This document shows, piece by piece, positions 9,120-57,490 of a stretch of DNA of 64,000 nt. The position numbers were made by a program, and so were the translations under genes. Below the pieces are notes generated by a model, which saw only the letters and a list, made by a program, of their open reading frames with translations, made no database searches and had not been told where the DNA came from. The DNA comes from a virus. Within the stretch, counting starts at the first letter, position 1; the number at the start of each line of letters is the position of its first letter. Location: positions 9,931 to 73,930 of IMG/VR virus record IMGVR_UViG_3300025137_000028. The stretch is one strand, 5' to 3'.

Positions 9120-10655
9120 ATGGTTCAAAAAATAAGAAGTAATCAAACAGATTTTACAAGTGATGATGACGCTATATTAATACCTAAGGGTACTTCAGCA
9201 CAAGGCTCTACAGTAACGGCAGGTGCTCTAAGATATAATACAACAACAGGTAGACTAGAAGTAGCCGATGGTTCTGCTTACGTTGGTGTAGGTATAGAAA
9301 TTCCTACAATTACTAGTGTTAGCCCTACAAACATAAACGCAAATGTTGACGGTGCTACAACAGACGTTGTTGTTACAGGTACAGGTTTTACAACAGGTGC
9401 TGTTGTTAAATTTATTGGTAATGACGCTTCATCTGTTACAGCAACTACAACAACAAGAAATTCAGCAACACAATTAACTGCTCGTGTTACAAATGCTAAC
9501 TTAGCTTCATCAAAAGAACCATTTGATGTTAAAGTTGAATTAGTTGAAGGTGTACAGACACAAATAGACAATCAAATTTCAATTAACGCTACTCCTGCTT
9601 TTATTACATCTGCTGGTTCTTTAGGATCATTTGAAGATGATGAAAGATCAGGTATCAGTATAGTAGTAGGGGCAACAGACGAAGAGTCTGCTGGTCCAGT
9701 TTTATTCAGAGTAGCAACTGGTGATTCATTACCAGCTGGTTTAGCTTTAACAAGTAATGACAATGATACTTGTACAATCGCTGGCGACGCTACAGCAGTA
9801 GATGACGATACTACAACAAGTTTTGACATTGAAGCTTCAGACGCTGCTTCAAACGTAACAACAAGATCATTTACAATCGCTATCCTTGCTAATAAATCTC
9901 AACAATTTAATGCTAACGGTACATTTGCTGTACCAACTGGTGTTACTGCTGTTCAGTTATTAGTTGTAGGATCCGGTGGTACTGGAGGAACAGGTGGCGG
10001 AGGCGGTGCTGGATTATGTTTCACAAACTCATTCTCAGTTTCCCCTGGTGGTACAGTAGCTGTTACAGTTGCTGGACTAAACAATAATAGACAAACATTC
10101 CCAGCCCCTAATACTCAATCTCGTGGTGCTTCAGGTGACTCATCTGTATTCAATACGACTGTAACTGCCATTTCTGGTGGCGGTGGCGGAGGTCCAGGTG
10201 GGCAGAATGACGCACAGTTACCAGGTAAAGACGGTGGATCAGGCGGCGGAGGCGGAGCCACGGGCGGTAAAGGTGGTTTCTATTCTGGTGGTCAAGGTAC
10301 ACAAGGTGCTTCTGGTGGTGTTCCAGGTTTTGGTAATGACGGTGGTGCTGGTTCAGGTACAGGAAATAACGGAACAAATGGTGGCGGTGGCGGAGGTGCT
10401 GGTGCTGCTGGCGGTAACGCAAATGCTTTACAAAACTCAAAAGGTGCTGGCGGTGACGGTAAACTATTTAATATAGCTGACGGTTCAACTAACGTTGGAT
10501 ACGCTGGAGGTATGGGTGGTTCTACTACTAGTACAGCCTTTGGTGCTGTTAACCCAGGTAGTCCAAACACAATGACTGATCCTCAACACGCAAACAGAGG
10601 TGGTGCTGGAAGCGGACAAGCCGCTGCTGGTGTTGTTATTGTTCGTTGGTCATAA
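9120..10655 (+). CDS. Tail fibre / adhesin-like protein with Ig-like domains and a glycine-rich C-terminal domain
   Basis: PTITSVSP (IPT/TIG-like), LPAGLAL cadherin-like domain, Gly-rich region ending GVVIVRW. Confidence 0.7.
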   Translation: MVQKIRSNQTDFTSDDDAILIPKGTSAQGSTVTAGALRYNTTTGRLEVADGSAYVGVGIEIPTITSVSPTNINANVDGATTDVVVTGTGFTTGAVVKFIGNDASSVTATTTTRNSATQLTARVTNANLASSKEPFDVKVELVEGVQTQIDNQISINATPAFITSAGSLGSFEDDERSGISIVVGATDEESAGPVLFRVATGDSLPAGLALTSNDNDTCTIAGDATAVDDDTTTSFDIEASDAASNVTTRSFTIAILANKSQQFNANGTFAVPTGVTAVQLLVVGSGGTGGTGGGGGAGLCFTNSFSVSPGGTVAVTVAGLNNNRQTFPAPNTQSRGASGDSSVFNTTVTAISGGGGGGPGGQNDAQLPGKDGGSGGGGGATGGKGGFYSGGQGTQGASGGVPGFGNDGGAGSGTGNNGTNGGGGGGAGAAGGNANALQNSKGAGGDGKLFNIADGSTNVGYAGGMGGSTTSTAFGAVNPGSPNTMTDPQHANRGGAGSGQAAAGVVIVRWS

Positions 10656-37042: not shown

Positions 37043-38758
37043 ATGATAAGATTTAAAAAAATTAAGTGGAAAAATTTTCTGTCAACAGGTAATACACCAA
37101 TAGAAGTTGACTTAGATAAATCAAACACAACACTTGTTATAGGTACAAACGGTTCAGGCAAGTCAACTTTACTAGACGCCATGACTTTTGTTTTATTTAA
37201 TAGACCATTTAGAATAATAAAAAAAGAACAAATGGTTAATACGATAAACAATGGTGAAGCATTAGTAGAAATAGAATTTTCAATAGGTACTAAACAATAT
37301 AAAGTTATTAGAGGTATTAAACCTAACATATTTGAAATATATGAAGACGATCAATTAATAAACCAAGACGCTTCTAGTATTGATTATCAAAAGATATTAG
37401 AAAGAAATATAATGAGATTAAGTTATAGATCATTTATTCAAGTAGTAATATTAGGGTCATCATCTTACGAGCCATTTATGAAAATGAAATCTCGTTATAG
37501 AAAAGAAGCAGTTGAAGAGATACTTGACATAAAAGTATTTTCACATATGGACTGGATGTTAAGAGATCAACAATCTGTTTTAAATAAAAAGATTATAGAA
37601 GTTAAACATAATGCTGATCTAGTAAAATCTAAGTATGAATTAGAAAGTAAACACTTTAATGAAATAAAGAATAGAAATACAGATGATAAGACACAAAAAG
37701 AACAACAGTTAGATAAATTAAACTTAGATAAAAAAGATTACTTAGAAAAGATACAAAAATTAGATGGTGAATATACACAACTAAAAGAACAAACAATTGA
37801 TAAAGGTCCTCAAACAACAAGATTAACTCAATTAGAAAAACTAGAAACAAAGATAGAACAAAATTTAGAAACTCATACAAAGAATTTAGAGTTTTTTGAA
37901 GAAAATGATACCTGTCCTACTTGTACACAACCAATTGATGAAACATTTAAATTAGGAAAACAAGAAGAACTAAAGAGTAAAGTTGTTACCTTAAATGAAG
38001 GTATGAAAAAATTAGTAGAAGAAATATCTACTACTGAAACTAAATTATCAGAAATTAATTCTATATCTGAAAAAATGTCAGATTTAAATATAGAAATGTC
38101 AAAAGTTAATACATCAATAAATGAACTTAAAAAATTTAGTGACAATCTACATAATGAGATATTATTGTTAGATAACAAAAAAGAGGACAGTGATAATATA
38201 GAAAAACAATTAGAAGAATTAAAAGTTAATTTAGAACAATCACAAGTTGATTTAGATAAAATTACCGAAGAAAAAACATATATTGATACAGTTAGAGAAA
38301 TACTATCTGAAAAAGGTGCTAAAACAAAAATTATTAAAAAGTATTTACCTATAATGAATACTTTAATAAATCAATACTTACAAGATATGAACTTCTTTGT
38401 TAACTTTCATTTAGATGAAGAGTTTAACGAGACAATAAAAAGTAGATTTAGAGATACTTTTAATTACAATAATTTTAGTGAGGGTGAAAAACTAAGAATA
38501 GATTTAGCATTGCTATTTACTTGGCGACAGATTGCTAAAATGAAAAATAGTACAAATACAAACGTTTTAATATTAGATGAAATATTTGATAGCTCATTAG
38601 ATGGTCAAGGTACAGATGACTTCTTTAAAATTATTAAATCACTATCAAAAGAAAATATCTTTATTATATCACATAAGGGCGATATACTATTTGATAAATT
38701 TACTAATATCATAAAATTTGATAAAATAAATAACTTTACGAGGTTACAGAATGTCTAA
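37043..38758 (+). CDS. gp46: Recombination ATPase gp46 (Rad50-like)
   Basis: NGSGKST, CPTC hook, FSEGEK signature and LDE motifs. Confidence 0.96.
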   Translation: MIRFKKIKWKNFLSTGNTPIEVDLDKSNTTLVIGTNGSGKSTLLDAMTFVLFNRPFRIIKKEQMVNTINNGEALVEIEFSIGTKQYKVIRGIKPNIFEIYEDDQLINQDASSIDYQKILERNIMRLSYRSFIQVVILGSSSYEPFMKMKSRYRKEAVEEILDIKVFSHMDWMLRDQQSVLNKKIIEVKHNADLVKSKYELESKHFNEIKNRNTDDKTQKEQQLDKLNLDKKDYLEKIQKLDGEYTQLKEQTIDKGPQTTRLTQLEKLETKIEQNLETHTKNLEFFEENDTCPTCTQPIDETFKLGKQEELKSKVVTLNEGMKKLVEEISTTETKLSEINSISEKMSDLNIEMSKVNTSINELKKFSDNLHNEILLLDNKKEDSDNIEKQLEELKVNLEQSQVDLDKITEEKTYIDTVREILSEKGAKTKIIKKYLPIMNTLINQYLQDMNFFVNFHLDEEFNETIKSRFRDTFNYNNFSEGEKLRIDLALLFTWRQIAKMKNSTNTNVLILDEIFDSSLDGQGTDDFFKIIKSLSKENIFIISHKGDILFDKFTNIIKFDKINNFTRLQNV

Positions 38759-39296
38759 AGATTTACAATTAATACCACCTAACGATCCAAGAGTTTGTTC
38801 AGCAATCGCACCATTTAGTGACGATATGTTAAAAGAACACAATCTAAAAGATAGACAAGAACTATCTGATAATATGTTTGAATTAATGTTTAAATATGGT
38901 GGTATAGGGTTATCAGCAAATCAAGTAGGTTTACCTTTTAATATGTTTGTTATGGGTGGGCATCCTGAATTAGAAAAAGGTTTAAGAATGACTTGTTTTA
39001 ATCCTATGATTATATCAGCTAGTGAAGAAACAATTGTTATGAAAGAAGGTTGTTTAACTTTTCCTTTTATGTTCTTATCTATTACAAGACCTAGAAAAGT
39101 TGTAGTAAAATATGAAGATGAAAAAGGTGATCTAAAAGAAGGTCATTTAGACGGCATGATTAGTCGTATTTTTCAACATGAACACGATCACATGTTAGGT
39201 AGATTATTTACAGAGAGAGCTAGTAAACTTAAACTAAAGAGGGCAAATATATATGCTAAAAAACAAATCAAAAAAATATCGAAAAGAAAAAAATAA
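38751..39296 (+). CDS. def: Peptide deformylase
   Basis: GIGLSANQVG, EGCLT and QHEHDH motifs. Confidence 0.95.
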   Translation: MSKDLQLIPPNDPRVCSAIAPFSDDMLKEHNLKDRQELSDNMFELMFKYGGIGLSANQVGLPFNMFVMGGHPELEKGLRMTCFNPMIISASEETIVMKEGCLTFPFMFLSITRPRKVVVKYEDEKGDLKEGHLDGMISRIFQHEHDHMLGRLFTERASKLKLKRANIYAKKQIKKISKRKK

Positions 39297-39417
39297 AATT
39301 TTTGAACATAATCCTAGTACAGGAGTTATTAGATGGCGTTATGTTGGTGAATCACCAGACAAGTTTGGCTGGCCGAACTATGGAAGAATATTAAAGAATG
39401 TCAAAAAACGAAATTAA
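39253..39417 (+). CDS. Small hypothetical protein (54 aa, not in ORF track)
   Basis: Hand translation MLKNKSKKYRKEKNKIFEHNPSTGVIRWRYVGESPDKFGWPNYGRILKNVKKRN fills the gap between def and the next gene. Confidence 0.5.
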   Translation: MLKNKSKKYRKEKNKIFEHNPSTGVIRWRYVGESPDKFGWPNYGRILKNVKKRN

Positions 39418-40018
39418 AAAATTATTTCCTACACCCTTATACATAGGTAACATAGGTGTAAATGAAGACTGGCTAACTTATATTAATTCATTAGATTTTG
39501 AGTTAACTTATTTAAAAAACGGTTTACAAACACAAGACAGACATATACTTTTACATAAAGAATTATCATCATTAAAGAAAAAAATAGATGATGAGTTTGA
39601 GATATATGCTAGAGATAAACTTAGAATAAATAAAAAACATAATTTTGAAATGATAAACTCATGGTGTAATATACATAATCAAGGACATGTAGCACAACCA
39701 CATCATCATCAAAATAGTATGTTTAGTGGTGTGTATTATTTACAATCAACAGAGAATACAGGTGCTATTAAGTTTAATCAAAGTCCTTTTAAGAGTTGGA
39801 ATAATATTATGATTAAATTAGAAATAGATGAAGGAAATGAATTTAATAATGATGAATGTATAATTAATCCTATGCCTGGTACAGTAGTGTTATTTCCGTC
39901 TTGCGTTTCACATGAAACAGATGTAAACAATACAACACATCAAAGATATTCACTTGCCTTTAATTACTTTCCTAGAGGTCAGTTTGGTGATAAAGAATCA
40001 TACTTGGAGATAAAATAA
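39398..40018 (+). CDS. 2OG-Fe(II) oxygenase (TIGR02466-like)
   Basis: LFPTP, SWCN...HHH.NS.FSGVYY and FPS..H...RYSLAFN motifs. Confidence 0.85.
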   Translation: MSKNEIKKLFPTPLYIGNIGVNEDWLTYINSLDFELTYLKNGLQTQDRHILLHKELSSLKKKIDDEFEIYARDKLRINKKHNFEMINSWCNIHNQGHVAQPHHHQNSMFSGVYYLQSTENTGAIKFNQSPFKSWNNIMIKLEIDEGNEFNNDECIINPMPGTVVLFPSCVSHETDVNNTTHQRYSLAFNYFPRGQFGDKESYLEIK

Positions 40019-40617
40019 TGAATGTAGAAATTACAGATGACTTTATAGGAATATTTGATAATTTTTTTACAGACGAATATATTGAAAATTATATTACTTA
40101 CTTTGAAAAAATGAATAAAAACAATTTAACTTTCAAAAGAGAGTTTAGTCCTAGCCATGAAGTTGATGACACAGCATTTGATGAGCTTTCAGAACCATTT
40201 TATATAAAAGAATTACCTGTACATTACATGGCAAAAAATTTTATTGATATATTTTTTAATCAAAAACATGGACCATATCAAAGATATATTGAAAAGTTTA
40301 GTATTTTAAAAACACAAGGTAGACACTCAATATTTGATATAAAGATACAAAAGACAGAGCCAGGTCAAGGGTATCATATTTGGCATGTAGAAAATAGCCA
40401 ATTAACTAGTAGAAATAGAGTTACTGCTTTTACATTGTACTTAAATGATGTAGAAGATGGTGGCGAGACAGAGTTTTTATATCAAAAAAGAAGAATTAAA
40501 CCTAAGAAAAATAGATTAGTTATTTGGCCTGCTCATTTTACTCATGTACATAGAGGAAATCCACCCTTATCAAATGACAAATATATTTTAACTGGTTGGA
40601 CTGAATACTCTTATTAA
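40018..40617 (+). CDS. 2OG-Fe(II) oxygenase
   Basis: GYHIWHVE, YLNDVEDGGETEF and HRGNPP..KYILTGW motifs. Confidence 0.9.
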   Translation: MNVEITDDFIGIFDNFFTDEYIENYITYFEKMNKNNLTFKREFSPSHEVDDTAFDELSEPFYIKELPVHYMAKNFIDIFFNQKHGPYQRYIEKFSILKTQGRHSIFDIKIQKTEPGQGYHIWHVENSQLTSRNRVTAFTLYLNDVEDGGETEFLYQKRRIKPKKNRLVIWPAHFTHVHRGNPPLSNDKYILTGWTEYSY

Positions 40618-47036: not shown

Positions 47037-47234
47037 ATGAGAGTTGATGTTAGAAACAATAATGTAGAACAAGCATTAAGAGTTTTAAAGAAAAAATTAA
47101 TGAAAGATGGTCGTCTTAAAGAATTAAAAGAAAGAGCATATTATATTAAACCCTCTGAGTTGAAAAGAGAAGCAAAAAAACGTGGTATTATTAACTATAA
47201 AAAGAACAAAAAAAAACTAGATCAACAACGTTAG
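47037..47234 (+). CDS. rpsU: Ribosomal protein bS21
   Basis: VRNNNVEQALRVLKKK...ELKER.YY.KPS..KR matches bS21; GGGAGG SD. Confidence 0.92.
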   Translation: MRVDVRNNNVEQALRVLKKKLMKDGRLKELKERAYYIKPSELKREAKKRGIINYKKNKKKLDQQR

Positions 47235-47468: not shown

Positions 47469-47921
47469 ATGACAGATCACAAAGCAATTCACTCAATTTT
47501 TACTGGACTAAAACCGTTTACTGTAGGGTTTGACGATATGTTTGACCATTTAGATATGGTACACAATCACATTCCACATTTAACGGCTAATAACTATCCG
47601 CCATACAATATTGTAAAGACAGGCTCTTTAACATATGACATAGAAGTGGCATTGGCTGGTTATAATAAGAAAGATGTACAAGTAACTTATGAGAATAATA
47701 TGATTAAAATTAACTCTGTAAAAAGTAAAGACGAAAAAGAAGTTGAAGACAATGACGGAATATTACATAAAGGCATTGCTAAAAGAAACTTCTATAAATC
47801 TTTTACTATAGCAGAGGATATTGAGGTAAAAGGTGCTGAATTAAAAGATGGACTTTTAAGAGTATCTTTAGAAAAAATTGTTCCAGACCATAAGAAGGCT
47901 AGAACTATCAATATCAAATAA
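47469..47921 (+). CDS. hsp20: Small heat-shock protein Hsp20 (IbpA-like)
   Basis: NYPPYNI, EVALAG, HKGIAKR.F and DGLL motifs. Confidence 0.95.
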   Translation: MTDHKAIHSIFTGLKPFTVGFDDMFDHLDMVHNHIPHLTANNYPPYNIVKTGSLTYDIEVALAGYNKKDVQVTYENNMIKINSVKSKDEKEVEDNDGILHKGIAKRNFYKSFTIAEDIEVKGAELKDGLLRVSLEKIVPDHKKARTINIK

Positions 47922-50120: not shown

Positions 50121-50387
50121 ATGAAATACAATGAAGATAAAATCTTAAAAGAGATAGACGAATATATTAAATCTACTTATGGTCAGCATTACTCAAAAGG
50201 TAAAGATGGCTTTCAAGTTTTAGATTTACTTAAAACTCTCAACGTAGGACAAGATTTTTGTCATGCTAACGCAATTAAATATTTGTGTAGGTATGGTAAG
50301 AAGAACGGCCATAATAGAGCTGACTTATTAAAAGCAGTTCATTATGTAATATTATTATTAAATTATGATAAGGAGAAGGTGAAATGA
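50121..50387 (+). CDS. DUF3310-like conserved phage protein
   Basis: TYGQHY, NAIKYLCRYGKKNG and DLLKAVHY motifs. Confidence 0.8.
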   Translation: MKYNEDKILKEIDEYIKSTYGQHYSKGKDGFQVLDLLKTLNVGQDFCHANAIKYLCRYGKKNGHNRADLLKAVHYVILLLNYDKEKVK

Positions 50388-51043
50388 ACATAAGCACAGA
50401 TACAATTGCTGTACTGAAAAATTTTTCAGACATTAATCAAAACATATTGATTAAACCAGGTAATGTGGTACAGACAATTTCTACAATGAAGAATATTTTA
50501 GCAGAGGCTGAAATAACAGAAAAATTTGATAGTGAGTTTGCTATCTATGATTTACCTGAATTTTTAAGATCAGTTGAATTATTTGATAAACCACAACTTA
50601 AATTTAATGGCGAATCAAATGTTAAAATTGAGAGTGGCGCTCAATCAGTAAAATACTTTTTTGCTGATAAATCAGTTATAGTTGCTCCTAAGAAAAGCAT
50701 TAATATGCCTGATAAACATGTTACATTTACTTTGAAAAAAGATGTGTTTACTCAGTTAATGAAAGGTGCTACAACACTTAACTTACCAGACATTGCTGTT
50801 AAAGGTGATGGTAGTAAGATTACATTAGTCGCTACTGATAAGAAAAACAAATCATCAAACGATTATTCATTAGTTATAGGTGAAACAGATAAAGAATTTT
50901 CTGCTTTCTTTAAAACAGAAAACTTTAAACAAGTTGTTGATGATTATGATGTAGCTATTTCTAAACAAAAAATATCACATTTTGTTAATAGAAATAAATC
51001 AATACAATATTGGATTGCTTTAGAACCTGATTCAGAGTTTTAA
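50384..51043 (+). CDS. gp45: Sliding clamp gp45
   Basis: LKNFSDINQ, FAIYDL.EFL and YWIALE motifs. Confidence 0.95.
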   Translation: MNISTDTIAVLKNFSDINQNILIKPGNVVQTISTMKNILAEAEITEKFDSEFAIYDLPEFLRSVELFDKPQLKFNGESNVKIESGAQSVKYFFADKSVIVAPKKSINMPDKHVTFTLKKDVFTQLMKGATTLNLPDIAVKGDGSKITLVATDKKNKSSNDYSLVIGETDKEFSAFFKTENFKQVVDDYDVAISKQKISHFVNRNKSIQYWIALEPDSEF

Positions 51044-51046
51044 ATT

Positions 51047-51565
51047 ATGAGAGTTGATTTATTTTCAACTCCCATATTGATAGATGACTTTGATATTACT
51101 AAGTTAAAATTTGTAGAAGAAGGTCAGCAAACCCAATTTGGCAGTGAAATAAAAACCAGTCATGGTTTTACTAACATTATAGAAAAAGATAGTTTAGATT
51201 ATTTCTACAATAAGATAGTAAGTAATTTAGATCAAGTTATTTCCCAATCATATCATGTTAAAGCAGATAATATATGGCGTAACTACTATAAAGAAGGTGA
51301 CTGGCAAGAAAAACACACCCATATAGGTTCTGACTTTTCATTTATAATTTATGATAGTGTAAAGTCTAATACTTGGTTTGTTCACCCAGCACACTATTTA
51401 ATACAAGAAAAATATAAAGATAAAAAACTATTTGATACAGAGGTAAAACCTCATATCAATTATGGTCAGATTTGTATTTTTCCTAGTTACTTAGAGCATT
51501 ATGTGTCTAAAGCTGAAAGTCAATCAACAACTATATCAGGTAATTTAAGTATAGAAATAAAATGA
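51047..51565 (+). CDS. 2OG-Fe(II) oxygenase
   Basis: W.N.Y...QEKHTH..SFIIY...FPSYLEH.V...TISGN. Confidence 0.75.
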   Translation: MRVDLFSTPILIDDFDITKLKFVEEGQQTQFGSEIKTSHGFTNIIEKDSLDYFYNKIVSNLDQVISQSYHVKADNIWRNYYKEGDWQEKHTHIGSDFSFIIYDSVKSNTWFVHPAHYLIQEKYKDKKLFDTEVKPHINYGQICIFPSYLEHYVSKAESQSTTISGNLSIEIK

Positions 51566-52918: not shown

Positions 52919-53863
52919 ATGTCAGATTTTTTATGGGTTGAAAAGTATCGACCTAAAAAAATTAGTGATTGTATTCTTACACAAGAACTGAAAGATACAT
53001 TTACAAAATTTTTAGAACAAAAAGAAATACCTAATTTACTATTATCAGGTACAGCAGGTACAGGTAAAACTACTGTTGCTCGTGCTTTATGTGAAGAGTT
53101 AGGTACAGATTACATTATCATTAATGGTTCAGATGAAGGTAGACAGATTGATACACTTAGAAGTAAGATCAAAAACTTTGCCGCCACTGTATCACTTACC
53201 GAAGACGCCAATCATAAAGTTGTAATTATAGACGAGGCAGATTACATGAATGCTGACAGTGTTCAACCTGCTTTAAGAAACTTTATAGAAACATTTTATA
53301 ATAACTGTAGATTTATATTTACTTGTAATTATAAGAACAAAATTATACCAGCCTTACATAGTCGTTGTACAGTTATTGATTTTAAAATTGTAAATGGTCA
53401 AAGAGTTAAAACTGCTACTGCCTTTCTTAAAAGACTAGAGGGTATTCTAAATGATGAACAAGTAGGTTTTGATAAGAAAGTATTAGCAGAGTTAATACAA
53501 AAATATTATCCTGACTTTAGAAGAACAATAAACGAGTTACAAAGATATGCTGTAAGAGGTAAGATAGACAGTGGTATTTTGTTTAGTTTATCTGAGGTAA
53601 ATCATAAAGAGTTAATGCTGACTTTAAAAGAAAAACGTTTTAATGATATGAGAAAATGGGTTGTACAAAACTTAGACAAAGAACCATCACATTTATTTAG
53701 AACCATTTATGATGTATTGTATAAAGAATTAGATCCTAAGGCAGTACCACAAGCAATATTAATTATTGCTGGCTATCAATATAAAGCTGCCTTTGTTGCT
53801 GACCAAGAGATTAATATGGTCGCATGTTTAACTGAAATAATGGCGAGTTGTAAGTTTAGGTAA
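52919..53863 (+). CDS. gp44: Clamp loader large subunit gp44
   Basis: WVEKYRP, GTGKTT, DEAD and SRC motifs. Confidence 0.97.
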   Translation: MSDFLWVEKYRPKKISDCILTQELKDTFTKFLEQKEIPNLLLSGTAGTGKTTVARALCEELGTDYIIINGSDEGRQIDTLRSKIKNFAATVSLTEDANHKVVIIDEADYMNADSVQPALRNFIETFYNNCRFIFTCNYKNKIIPALHSRCTVIDFKIVNGQRVKTATAFLKRLEGILNDEQVGFDKKVLAELIQKYYPDFRRTINELQRYAVRGKIDSGILFSLSEVNHKELMLTLKEKRFNDMRKWVVQNLDKEPSHLFRTIYDVLYKELDPKAVPQAILIIAGYQYKAAFVADQEINMVACLTEIMASCKFR

Positions 53864-53867
53864 GACT

Positions 53868-53975
53868 ATGCCTCATAAAAAAAATCCTATAGCAAAAGAA
53901 GTAAGAACACCTAAGTATAAACCAAGAGTAGTAAAACCTAAAAAAGGTAAAGGTAGTTTTAAAAGAAAAAAGTAA
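53868..53975 (+). CDS. arfA: ArfA-like alternative ribosome-rescue factor (35 aa, not in ORF track)
   Basis: MPHKKNPIAKEVRTPKYKPRVVKPKKGKGSFKRKK carries the ArfA core N.I......P....RV...KKGKGS(Y/F).RK; its stop overlaps the next ATG. Confidence 0.72.
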   Translation: MPHKKNPIAKEVRTPKYKPRVVKPKKGKGSFKRKK

Positions 53976-54601
53976 TGATAGAAAAAGAAGTAATAAATGA
54001 AATGAAAGAGTTACAACCCTTTCACAAAGAGAACCTTATAAAAGGTTTATATTCTTGGCAAGAGTTTGAACAACTGATTAATTTAAGACCATTTGTAAAC
54101 AGTAAAAGATTTCATATAATTACAGATAAGATATTTAATTGGCAATCTAGTTTTTGGGCGTCTGATAAATTCTCATATCCAGTAGATTTAGTTGTAGATG
54201 AAACACAAAACAACATGGCATATTTAAGTGATTGTAGTAGAGCAAGTAAAAATATTAATGCTGTTTGTGAATGGCTAGAATATAGATTAAAAATGCCAAC
54301 AGACGCACACATTTATTTTTCGTTAAATAAAGAAAGTAAATCTTTTGATAAACATATAGATGAAGCACACAATCTTATTGTACAGATAGAAGGTCAAACT
54401 AGATTTAAGATATATAACTTAGAAGATGATTTAATAATAGACAAAGTATTAAGTAAGAATGACGCTGTGTTTATACCTAAAGGATATGCTCATCAAGCAG
54501 AGTCACTAAATAAAAGATTATCAATTAGTTTTCCTATGAAACCTGGTGATAGTAAAGAACAAGAATTTGAAAGTAGAAAATGGATAGAGTTCAACGAATA
54601 G
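53975..54601 (+). CDS. JmjC/cupin 2OG oxygenase (YcfD/RoxA-like)
   Basis: HIY.S...SFDKHID...LIVQIEG...F.IY and FIPKG.AH.A...S.SF match the cupin_4 pattern. Confidence 0.75.
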   Translation: MIEKEVINEMKELQPFHKENLIKGLYSWQEFEQLINLRPFVNSKRFHIITDKIFNWQSSFWASDKFSYPVDLVVDETQNNMAYLSDCSRASKNINAVCEWLEYRLKMPTDAHIYFSLNKESKSFDKHIDEAHNLIVQIEGQTRFKIYNLEDDLIIDKVLSKNDAVFIPKGYAHQAESLNKRLSISFPMKPGDSKEQEFESRKWIEFNE

Positions 54602-55167
54602 AATATTGGCACTGGTCAGCTGGCGAAATCTTTAACACAAATTATTTTGAAGGTCCAGATGATATAAAACAACTTCACAGTGTTATTAAAGATAATTTAA
54701 ACAAAGACATAAAAGATTTACCTGCTAGTGGTGTGCCAAAAACTTCTAAAGTAGATTTTATTTCATACAAACCATTACGACCATACCTTATTAATTTAGA
54801 ACAAAGAATTAAATGGTGTAACAATGAACACTTTGGTTTTAATTTACATGAATTTACAGATTTTGATTCAGTACATCTAAATACATATAGCTCATCAAAC
54901 TCTGGCGAGTATGGTTGGCATAGTGATGTAGCAGATGGTGATAAACCGTGGGATATAAAATTTACAGTATTGATAAATGTATCGCAAAATTCTTATACAG
55001 GTGGTGACTTTCAGTTTATGTTAAATGGCGAACAAGATGTACCTGAGTTTAAAAACTGTGGTGATGTAATTATGTTTAGATCACACTTACAACATAGAGT
55101 AAAACCTATGATATTAGGTGAAAGACAAACATTATCTTTATTTGTGATAGGACCTAAATTTCAATGA
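54580..55167 (+). CDS. 2OG-Fe(II) oxygenase (prolyl-4-hydroxylase-like)
   Basis: EYGWHSD, GGDF and F.S...HRVKP...GER motifs. Confidence 0.85.
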   Translation: MDRVQRIEYWHWSAGEIFNTNYFEGPDDIKQLHSVIKDNLNKDIKDLPASGVPKTSKVDFISYKPLRPYLINLEQRIKWCNNEHFGFNLHEFTDFDSVHLNTYSSSNSGEYGWHSDVADGDKPWDIKFTVLINVSQNSYTGGDFQFMLNGEQDVPEFKNCGDVIMFRSHLQHRVKPMILGERQTLSLFVIGPKFQ

Positions 55168-55559
55168 GTTATGAATTAAAAGATTATCTGAACGCAATCA
55201 ACTTTTCAAAAGTTAATTTACTAGATACAGATGACGAGACGTGGGCAAAGAAATATCCACCTTATGTAATTAATAAGTGCTTGTCTATGTTCTATGATTG
55301 TATCGCACAAGCAAATGAAATGAATGGCTATCACTTCTTAGATAAGAAAGTTCAGTTTCATTTTTACATAAATAGTATCAGAAAAAGAAAGCGATTTGGT
55401 GGTAAGTGGCTATCACAAGCCAAATTGAAGAATTTAGAGTATGTAAAAGAGTATTATGGATATAGCAATGAGAAGGCTAAGGACGCTCTCAATATACTTA
55501 CAGAAAAACAAATTGAAGTTATTAAAGAATCCTTGAATAAAGGTGGGAGAACAAAATGA
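55164..55559 (+). CDS. gp62: Clamp loader small subunit gp62
   Basis: YPPYVINKCLS, RKRKRF and YYGYSNEKA motifs. Confidence 0.93.
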   Translation: MSYELKDYLNAINFSKVNLLDTDDETWAKKYPPYVINKCLSMFYDCIAQANEMNGYHFLDKKVQFHFYINSIRKRKRFGGKWLSQAKLKNLEYVKEYYGYSNEKAKDALNILTEKQIEVIKESLNKGGRTK

Positions 55560-55993
55560 GTGAAGAGATAAAATGGTCGCCTGAGAGTATGTTAGAGGTA
55601 ACAATCAAACAACCAGACGACTTCTTAAAAATTAGAGAGACACTTACGAGAATAGGTGTTGCCAGTAGAAAAGATAAGACACTATATCAATCGTGTCACA
55701 TATTACACAAACAAGGTAAATACTTTATAACACATTTTAAAGAATTGTTTGCCTTAGATGGAAAAAAATCAACGTTAGTTGTTAATGATATTCAAAGAAG
55801 AAACACTATAGCAATATTATTACAAGATTGGAATTTGATAGATATAGTTGATAAATCTAACACGGAAGATAAAGCACCTTTATCACAAATAAAAGTATTA
55901 CCTTTTAAAGAAAAACCAGAGTGGACTTTATCAGCAAAATATAATATTGGTAAAAAAGTAGAGACTAATGAAGAAGTTAAAGATGAGAAATAA
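55556..55993 (+). CDS. regA: Translational repressor RegA
   Basis: DDFLKIRETLTRIG and QSCHILHKQG.YFI.HFKELF motifs. Confidence 0.96.
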   Translation: MSEEIKWSPESMLEVTIKQPDDFLKIRETLTRIGVASRKDKTLYQSCHILHKQGKYFITHFKELFALDGKKSTLVVNDIQRRNTIAILLQDWNLIDIVDKSNTEDKAPLSQIKVLPFKEKPEWTLSAKYNIGKKVETNEEVKDEK

Positions 55994-57490
55994 ATGGAAG
56001 TTTCTAAATTTAAAGAGTTTATTAGTGAAGATAGAAGTATAGATAGAAAAGATAAATCTATTACTATTGCTATCATCACAATAGCAGATTCAAAAGACCC
56101 TAAAGAAAATACAACTGCTGATCTTATACAAAAAGCGTGTAAGAAAAAAGGCTTAAAATGTATTATTGTAAATACTAAATCTACAATCATAACAGATAAA
56201 GATGAAGATAAAAATACTTTAACTGTTTATAATTATGATGGTAAAAATAGTGAACACACTTTCACTGGTAAAGATACAATTTGTTTTACAAGAGGTGGTG
56301 CTTTAGAAGATGAAGCAGGACTATCTCTAATATCTTCATTTCAAAACTCACAAGCATTTATGTTAAACACAAGAGCGGCAATGCTTACTTGTGATAACAA
56401 ACTTACAGCTGCTTTGTTGTTTGAAAAGTTTGGGTTACCTACACCTAAAACATCTTATGTTTCTAATGAGAATAATATTAAGACTGCTTTAGATATGGTA
56501 GGCGGTAAATTTCCTGTGATAATGAAAACACTTACAGGTACACAAGGTGTTGGTGTTATTAAAATTGAGAGTTATGAAGGTCTAGTGGCAACTTTACAAG
56601 CAATGTGGAAACTAGAAGCAGAAATATTATTACAAGAGTATATGCCTTCTAAGTTTGATGTAAGAACGGTAGTAGTAGATAATAAAATATTTGCTAGTAC
56701 AAAAAGAACTCACAGCTCTTATGACTTTAGATCAAACACACATAGAGGGGCAGAGGCAGAACCATATACTATAGATGATGAAGAAAGAGAATTAATATTA
56801 AAGGCAGCCAGAGTTTCTAAAGCATATTATGTAGGAGTAGATCATATAATATTTAATAATAAACCATATCTATTAGAGATTAACGGTAGTCCAGGTTCAG
56901 GTGCTGATTACGAGGGGTATCAACATAGAGATTATTACGCTGACGCAGAGCCAGCAGGTAGAATTGATGGCGAAAAAGTAATAGAAAATTTAATTGATTA
57001 TGTTTCAGAAAGAAAAAATTGGGATAGACAATCACTTTTAGAAACTGGTTGGTTAGAAACAGTTGATTTAGATGAAGTGGGTAAAGTAAGAGTTAAGTTT
57101 GATACTGGTAACGGTTCAGCTGCTTGTGCCTTACACGCAGACAAAATTTTAGAAGATGGTAAGATTGTTAAATGGAAATATGATGGCAAGACTTATAGTA
57201 AACCTAGACATGGTACAAGTAAAGTGTTTAGATCAAATGCTACTAACGAACCATCAGAGGTAAGACCAACTATATTAATGGACTTAACATTTAATGGTTT
57301 TACATATAAAAATATAGAGATTGGTTTAGACCAAAGACCTAGATCAGGTTCAGACCTACTAGTCAATAGAGATTTAATGCGACAGATGAATATTAGTGTC
57401 AACCCTAATAGAACGTTTGTATTAAGTAAAAGAATAAGACCCATTGAAAAAGATGGTAAAAAAGATAAAATTGGCTTTGAAAAGAAATAA
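55994..57490 (+). CDS. RimK-like ATP-grasp ligase fused to a RimB-like retropepsin-type protease
   Basis: ATP-grasp motifs DNK, FPV..K..GTQG.GV, QEY, FRSN.HRG and EINGSPG; C-domain GWLETV...KFDTGN...RP...L..R. Confidence 0.85.
   Translation: MEVSKFKEFISEDRSIDRKDKSITIAIITIADSKDPKENTTADLIQKACKKKGLKCIIVNTKSTIITDKDEDKNTLTVYNYDGKNSEHTFTGKDTICFTRGGALEDEAGLSLISSFQNSQAFMLNTRAAMLTCDNKLTAALLFEKFGLPTPKTSYVSNENNIKTALDMVGGKFPVIMKTLTGTQGVGVIKIESYEGLVATLQAMWKLEAEILLQEYMPSKFDVRTVVVDNKIFASTKRTHSSYDFRSNTHRGAEAEPYTIDDEERELILKAARVSKAYYVGVDHIIFNNKPYLLEINGSPGSGADYEGYQHRDYYADAEPAGRIDGEKVIENLIDYVSERKNWDRQSLLETGWLETVDLDEVGKVRVKFDTGNGSAACALHADKILEDGKIVKWKYDGKTYSKPRHGTSKVFRSNATNEPSEVRPTILMDLTFNGFTYKNIEIGLDQRPRSGSDLLVNRDLMRQMNISVNPNRTFVLSKRIRPIEKDGKKDKIGFEKK

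Follow-up and report, generated by a model that had tools for sequence, protein, structure and literature searches.

A 35-codon gene of the ArfA family in the clamp-loader operon of an uncultured pelagimyophage-like phage, with a probable origin in the SAR11 host lineage

The clamp-loader operon of an uncultured phage contains a 35-codon gene whose product, judged by its sequence, belongs to the family of the alternative ribosome-rescue factor ArfA. The window analysed here is a stretch of 64,000 nucleotides, positions 9,931 to 73,930 of the IMG/VR virus record IMGVR_UViG_3300025137_000028. The explanation that we favor, with a probability of about 0.65, is that the gene is a real phage copy of the miniature ArfA of SAR11 bacteria, that its product is a predicted rescue factor recruiting the release factor RF2, and that its overlap with the next gene, which encodes a JmjC-type oxygenase, reflects packing. 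An ArfA on a phage is already known (gp30 of HTVC027P), and a host-derived arfA in a pelagimyophage-like phage is a new case.

The arfA-like gene is located at 53868..53975 on the plus strand, stop codon included, and encodes a SAR11-type alternative ribosome-rescue factor A of 35 amino acids (aa). Upstream are gp45 (50384..51043), a 2OG oxygenase and a glycosyltransferase gene, and gp44, encoding the clamp-loader large subunit (52919..53863, plus strand; Pfam AAA and Gp44_lid; PHROG 168, E 6e-123). Downstream, all on the plus strand, are a 208-aa JmjC_2/cupin 2OG oxygenase (53975..54601; Pfam JmjC_2, 39 bits, cut-off 22), a 2OG-Fe(II) oxygenase (54580..55167; Pfam 2OG-FeII_Oxy_3, 35.6 bits; PHROG 61) and gp62, the clamp-loader small subunit (55164..55559; Pfam Phage_clamp_A; PHROG 225, E 1e-41). 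These are followed by regA (55556..55993) and by a RimK-like ATP-grasp gene on the plus strand (55994..57490; Pfam RimK, 126 bits). The gap between the gp44 stop and the arfA start is 4 nt, and the last A of the arfA TAA is also the first base of the JmjC ATG (TAATG). A putative Shine-Dalgarno-like AGGT (53858..53861, plus strand), read from the sequence, lies 7 nt 5' of the arfA ATG and overlaps the gp44 stop. An earlier note on this DNA had described an ORF between gp44 and gp62 with its TAA overlapping the oxygenase ATG; this arrangement was confirmed, and the translation is the 35-aa peptide quoted there. That note also called the gene hidden, which applies to the ORF track of its reader only, as gene callers had the gene on the same record.

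The ORF represents a genuine gene. Its exact peptide is on record in six contigs, the 90%-identity cluster has 87 members, and close homologues are found in dozens of viral contigs as well as in SAR11 chromosomes. A separately assembled DNA contig from run X2, which may be the source sample, covers 53463-55454 with six differences, so the gene order at arfA is not an assembly artefact. The nearest cultured relatives of the window are the T4-like pelagimyophages Mosig EXVC030M and HTVC008M, with a best identity of 76.5% in the clamp-loader region.

Regarding the family, the peptide scores 31.0 bits against Pfam ArfA (PF03889; cut-off 25.5, E 1.7e-7), so the profile search that the earlier note had proposed returned a match. 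In a six-frame search with the same profile the window ORF scores 29.7 bits and, of 14 control genomes, E. coli alone exceeds the cut-off, which argues that the match reflects more than lysine richness. A phmmer search against all PDB sequences gave six distinct matches, every one of them an ArfA. All 47 aligned viral homologues match PF03889; N6 is kept in at least 90% of them and A9 is invariant, the tail motif alone having been used to find the set. Syntenic copies, also proposed earlier, do exist: arfA directly follows gp44 in two other viral contigs (L010 and L014) and adjoins gp62 in a third (L116). The ArfA assignment is therefore borne out by the above-cut-off profile, the ArfA-only PDB matches and conservation. 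Three other searches gave little: no NCBIfam model matches the window peptide or the SAR11 ArfAs, PHROGs gave weak matches to the window peptide (E 0.035), and a low-complexity-filtered tblastn search of the phage collection with the peptide as query gave no match. As blastn does find HTVC027P, the filter is probably responsible for the tblastn result.

Two explanations would deny the ORF its place in the family. One is that the frame is open by chance in a spacer between genes, as its very short length and the AT-rich DNA would allow; this is hardly credible, since the protein is conserved across phages and hosts at the length of the host gene and passes a curated profile cut-off, and since contigs either have or lack the gene as a precisely bounded cassette. 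The other is that the gene encodes a lysine-rich nucleic-acid-binding micro-protein whose likeness to ArfA is convergent or compositional. Fifteen of its 35 residues are Lys or Arg, and the empty filtered tblastn, the lack of an NCBIfam match and the weak PHROGs matches fit such a protein. We nevertheless consider it improbable, because the gap-free alignment to E. coli ArfA also covers the non-basic N, I, P, aromatic, V and G-x-G-S positions, the profile was specific in the six-frame control, and N6 and A9 are conserved outside the motif by which the homologues were found. The belonging of the ORF to the ArfA family is thus retained, at the level of sequence.

Phage residues 4-34 align without gaps to E. 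coli ArfA 12-42, with 15 of 31 positions identical. The peptide keeps the equivalents of E. coli N14, I16, P23, F25 (as Tyr), R28 and V29 and of KKGKGS(Y/F)xRK. The basic C-terminal segment (K25-K26-G27-K28-G29-S30-F31-x-R33-K34), aligned to E. coli K33..K42, is the predicted mRNA-channel segment; these positions are invariant in the homologue alignment (A2), which is in part forced by the search pattern. In the mid-region, P15, Y17, R20 and V21 align with the E. coli A-site/decoding-centre residues P23, F25, R28 and V29. Cryo-EM of the E. coli complex placed the ArfA C-terminus in the mRNA tunnel and H21-E30 in the A site, with P23 packed on A1492/A1493, A18 in the core of the N-terminal minidomain, and the hydrophobic patch L19, L24 and F25 of that minidomain in contact with RF2 W319 (PMC5378476). 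The hydrophobic character of the minidomain is not found in the phage peptide, where E. coli I11, A18, L19 and L24 correspond to H3, K10, E11 and K16, and the N-terminus is eight residues shorter. By sequence, then, the predicted ribosome-docking half is conserved and the predicted RF2-activating half is conserved in part. Because the host ArfAs show the same mismatch, it marks a subfamily and is no defect of the phage copy; the shorter N-terminus and the charged residues at the A18, L19 and L24 positions nevertheless mean that RF2 activation may differ or fail, and so divergent an N-terminus would be compatible with a variant mechanism.

The usual account of ArfA assigns it to beta- and gammaproteobacteria. 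When a sample of Alphaproteobacteria was searched in six frames with PF03889, seven of 401 genomes exceeded the cut-off. Two of these seven, and a third genome just under the cut-off, are 1.2-1.3 Mb in size with arfA loci of 25-30% GC, and exact look-ups assigned their ArfA proteins to Pelagibacteraceae / HIMB114. Pelagibacterales proteins of 35-40 aa had already been named "alternative ribosome rescue factor ArfA" by NCBI and IMG. Within Pelagibacterales, the order of genome G118, 201 genomes were sampled: 103 yielded a single match each at E<=1e-3, and 49 exceed the cut-off; one of the 103, G510, is unpublished, and the claim on host distribution stands without it. About half of the sampled genomes of this order thus carry an ArfA-like ORF, beyond the usual beta- and gammaproteobacterial range.

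We read 32 of the host arfA loci. Their modal ORF length is 35 aa, and over 30 anchored positions the window peptide is 67-87% identical to the host proteins. The gene adjoins adenosine kinase in 28 of the 32 loci and nth (endonuclease III) in 25, a recurrence which argues for conserved chromosomal synteny and not for a prophage. From the shared length, the identity and the host synteny, the window gene appears to be a copy of the mini-ArfA of the host lineage, that is, an auxiliary gene of host-lineage origin. SAR11 (Pelagibacterales) is the probable host of this uncultured phage. RF2 (TIGR00020) exceeds its cut-off in three of three SAR11 genomes tested, and in the one RF2 that was read, that of G118, a Trp is kept at the switch-loop position of E. 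coli W319, so that the host lineage has an RF2 partner with this residue, as E. coli does. The Pelagibacterales proteins (EMH80712.1 of HIMB114 and MDA7564416.1 are examples) share with the phage copy the length of 35 aa and the N-x-I-A, P-K-Y-K and R-V-V-K-P-KKGKGSFKRKK motifs, and the genes of both end in a true stop codon and have no hairpin. They differ in the first four N-terminal residues and in location, the phage gene being in a T4-like clamp-loader operon and the bacterial gene beside adenosine kinase and nth. The earlier proposal of a minimal, tail-less phage ArfA holds as to the short form. This form is no innovation of the phage, since 35 aa is the modal length in Pelagibacterales chromosomes; the tail-less form is inherited.

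A back-translated motif scan of IMG/VR found at least 116 viral contigs with the motif. Most of the viral matches listed are ORFs of 33-60 aa with the pattern NP(I/V)A(K/R)...(V/I)VKPKKGKGS(Y/F)xRK, and the phage copies closest to the window gene among the matches listed (L068, L071, L033 and L102) have quite different gene neighbourhoods. In the cultured pelagiphage HTVC027P, gp30 was annotated as ArfA and reported as expressed during infection (PMC12753301, ISME Commun 2025). It is homologous to the window gene, with 81% nucleotide identity over 84 nt and a nearly identical NPVAKEVRTPKYK core in common, and both are thus ArfA homologues on SAR11 phages. The HTVC027P protein, however, has 58 aa with a 24-residue N-terminal extension, carries KKGRGS in place of KKGKGS, and scores 20.2 bits, under the Pfam cut-off that the window gene exceeds; HTVC027P is also another type of phage, in which gp30 adjoins the small terminase gene. 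A subgroup of phage ArfAs to which gp30 belongs (L033:175-381(-), L102:3899-4102(-) and L167:2426-2602(+)) has a conserved N-terminal extension, KWDGRSRP...Y.EN..RIF; four members of the homologue alignment also match Pfam DUF7230. A gp30-like arfA with an apparent frameshift is present in a 6.5-kb scaffold of Flavobacterium sp. SCGC AAA160-P02 (L122 / L126, ~2860-2950); phage DNA carried along with the sorted cell, or else a sequencing error, may account for this single-cell copy.

Compared with E. coli ArfA (YhdL, PF03889; PDB 5MGP, 5U4I, 5MDV, 5H5U and 7OJ0), the phage peptide has in common the KGKGS motif and the equivalents of P23, F25, R28 and V29. It is much shorter, 35 aa against 72 aa encoded and 52-55 mature; it lacks residues 1-8 and the C-terminal 44-72, and A18, L19 and L24 are replaced in it by K, E and K. 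ArfT of Francisella tularensis is a release-factor-dependent rescue factor of 40 aa whose gene has a normal stop codon (PMC6299226). It resembles the phage ArfA in its very small size, its basic KGKGS-like tail, its normal stop codon and the absence of RNase III regulation. The sequence relationship between the two is undetectable past the basic tail, and ArfT accepts either RF1 or RF2. No experiment on a phage or SAR11 ArfA came to light in the literature.

ArfA-like segments also appear in other protein contexts. Many viral contigs, such as L060:979-1332(-), L054:7716-8141(+), L007:3691-4431(-) and L075:3790-4449(+), encode an above-cut-off ArfA-like N-terminal module fused to a conserved C-terminal domain, which has the motif NYTKP..RK..F..IKAGGKGG.PGQWSARKAQ and no Pfam match. 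In L077:3077-3772(+) an ArfA-like N-terminus (28.5 bits) is in frame with a domain like C-5 cytosine DNA methylase, by true fusion or by a missed stop or frameshift. KKGKGS(Y/F)xRK alone follows two kinds of unrelated N-termini, ..EL.EYL.FKRRG.. and ..IPWNTG.R.H.., in proteins classed as type B (L005, L015, L036 and L065) and type C (L008, L026 and L113), and in L012, L041 and L025 it lies inside longer proteins of 150-200 aa that end in PLF. Motif-only proteins with unrelated N-termini score 21-25 bits on PF03889, the motif giving much of the Pfam score, and KKGKGS(Y/F)xRK therefore behaves like a portable module.

In E. coli, RNase III truncates the arfA message, and ArfA is translated from the resulting non-stop form. 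The phage arfA ends in a true TAA stop, and no internal hairpin or non-stop design was found in it (folding z = 0.29 against dinucleotide shuffles), so there is no evident tmRNA-linked control of the E. coli kind. A crude test with mononucleotide shuffles likewise found no hairpin in the host SAR11 arfA loci (median z ~ -0.25). The non-stop hairpin regulates some ArfAs and is not a feature that defines the family. With its own stop, no hairpin and a position in the gp44-gp62 operon, the phage arfA is probably made together with the replication genes, and not solely upon failure of trans-translation. RNA contigs cover parts of gp44 and of the 2OG gene but no more than 38 nt of arfA, the latter possibly derived from a host or another phage; a contig joint that skips 1607 was disregarded because one of its sides was 28, under 30. 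In runs X2 and X4, over window positions 53810-53990, the depth of contigs with at least 90% likeness rises sharply over arfA, with loose ends from 53876. This rise and the loose ends suggest that the short arfA sequence is common to other host or phage contexts in the same marine samples.

The gene that overlaps arfA encodes a protein with an AF2 model of high confidence (pLDDT 94.8). Its iron triad, HxD...H (H127, D129 and H173), is invariant in 50 homologues, which have 170-250 aa. The best PDB folds in Foldseek are those of NO66, YcfD and MINA53 (E ~1e-11, TMq 0.6-0.7). The phage protein shares with YcfD/RoxA, NO66 and MINA53 the Pfam JmjC_2 domain, the triad and the closest structural match. 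At the same time its identity to them is 13-18%, and its 208 aa cover about a third of targets of 360-460 aa (TMt 0.32-0.39), so that the three-domain architecture of the ribosomal oxygenases is not reproduced: the phage protein is the catalytic barrel alone, whereas they add dimerisation and winged-helix domains. "RoxA-like fold" is consequently a fair description of the predicted model. The earlier description of a RoxA/YcfD-like oxygenase is upheld as regards the catalytic-domain fold, the two further domains being absent, and a role as ribosome-modifying partner of ArfA is not supported. Within 16 kb, the plus strand of the window holds no fewer than five 2OG-Fe(II)/cupin oxygenase genes (39398-40018, 40018-40617, 51047-51565, 53975-54601 and 54580-55167), and with so many in the window one of them next to arfA is expected by chance.

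The earlier note had gone further and paired arfA with the JmjC gene as a ribosome-modifying enzyme, in effect a coupled unit for ribosome takeover in which rescue would go together with the hydroxylation of uL16 or another ribosomal protein. The TAATG overlap, the nearness of the JmjC model to ribosomal oxygenases, and the presence in the phage of bS21, a peptide deformylase and a RimK-like ligase would be in keeping with such a unit. Related viruses, however, separate the two genes. In L004, the closest relative found (JmjC 90% and gp44 92% identical), the gp44 stop overlaps the JmjC start and arfA is absent as a clean 115-bp indel; conversely, L010 and L014 have gp44-arfA-gp62-regA-RimK with neither the JmjC nor the second oxygenase gene, as does L116 for arfA-gp62-regA-RimK, its contig ending before gp44. 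No JmjC homologue was found in the fetched flanks of the viral arfA loci among the 116 matches listed, the SAR11 chromosomal arfA has adenosine kinase and nth beside it and no JmjC gene, and both genes are missing from the gp44/gp62 slot of Mosig and HTVC008M. As the two genes occur separately in relatives, the gap between gp44 and gp62 is a slot of variable content, with cargo genes that assort independently of one another. Since the JmjC protein is also without the two additional domains of ribosomal oxygenases, the coupled unit is very unlikely; a ribosome-modifying role for the JmjC protein as partner of ArfA is not supported, and the TAATG overlap is ordinary tight packing and no functional unit. 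A further alternative accepts that the peptide binds the mRNA channel and proposes that, instead of recruiting a release factor, it acts there as an inhibitor or competitor, tmRNA-SmpB or host initiation being examples of what it might block. It gains some plausibility from the charged residues that replace the RF2-activating A18, L19 and L24 of E. coli, from the N-terminus shortened by eight residues, and from the many viral proteins that carry the basic-tail motif behind unrelated N-termini. We give this alternative a small chance, since identity reaches 87% between the peptide and the product of a single-copy host gene in conserved synteny, and such a gene is unlikely to encode a translation inhibitor; the equivalents of P23, F25, R28 and V29 are kept, as is the Trp contact in the one host RF2 read (G118).

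The reading that we prefer remains a rescue factor of host-lineage origin, and RF2-dependent rescue by the phage ArfA is likely by analogy with E. coli. Where a ribosome has reached the 3' end of a broken message and stalled, the basic tail of the phage peptide around KKGKGSF would enter its empty mRNA channel, and the Pro/aromatic mid-region (P15, Y17, R20 and V21) would sit in the A site. Host RF2 would then be recruited and the peptide released, and the freed ribosome would become available to phage messages. That the peptide binds the ribosome, that RF2 is needed, when the gene is expressed and what the phage gains are all predictions, the mechanism being projected by homology to E. coli ArfA. 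A more far-reaching proposal, which we put forward tentatively and as possible more than probable, is that the SAR11-type 35-aa ArfA, copied repeatedly by SAR11 myo- and podophages, is the smallest release-factor-dependent rescue factor known; that it activates its release factor differently or accepts RF1, as ArfT does; and that the phage supplies it constitutively, without a tmRNA-linked brake, to recycle ribosomes off degraded host messages in a ribosome-poor host.

Several other translation or proteostasis genes are dispersed in the phage besides arfA, and joint action is not implied by their presence. Pfam matches identify, on the plus strand, a peptide deformylase (38751-39296), ribosomal protein bS21 (47037-47234) and Hsp20 (47469-47921). 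The RimK-like gene (55994-57490, plus strand) encodes a 498-aa RimK-family ATP-grasp ligase with a weak C-terminal match to a Zn_protease-like domain (E 0.033); it is kept after regA in L004, L010, L014 and L116, and its Mosig counterpart is annotated "glutathione synthetase".

The gene is a further clear example of a pattern that has received little study, that of phages with a ribosome-rescue factor of their own, and the phage copy is traced, by sequence comparison, to the miniature ArfA of the host lineage; the idea of an ArfA-oxygenase takeover of the ribosome is removed as unsupported. A peptide of 35 aa can be synthesised chemically, so that the mechanism of a minimal ArfA is directly testable in vitro. 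SAR11 cells are slow-growing and ribosome-poor, and for that reason the freeing of stalled ribosomes could limit the yield of the phages that infect them.
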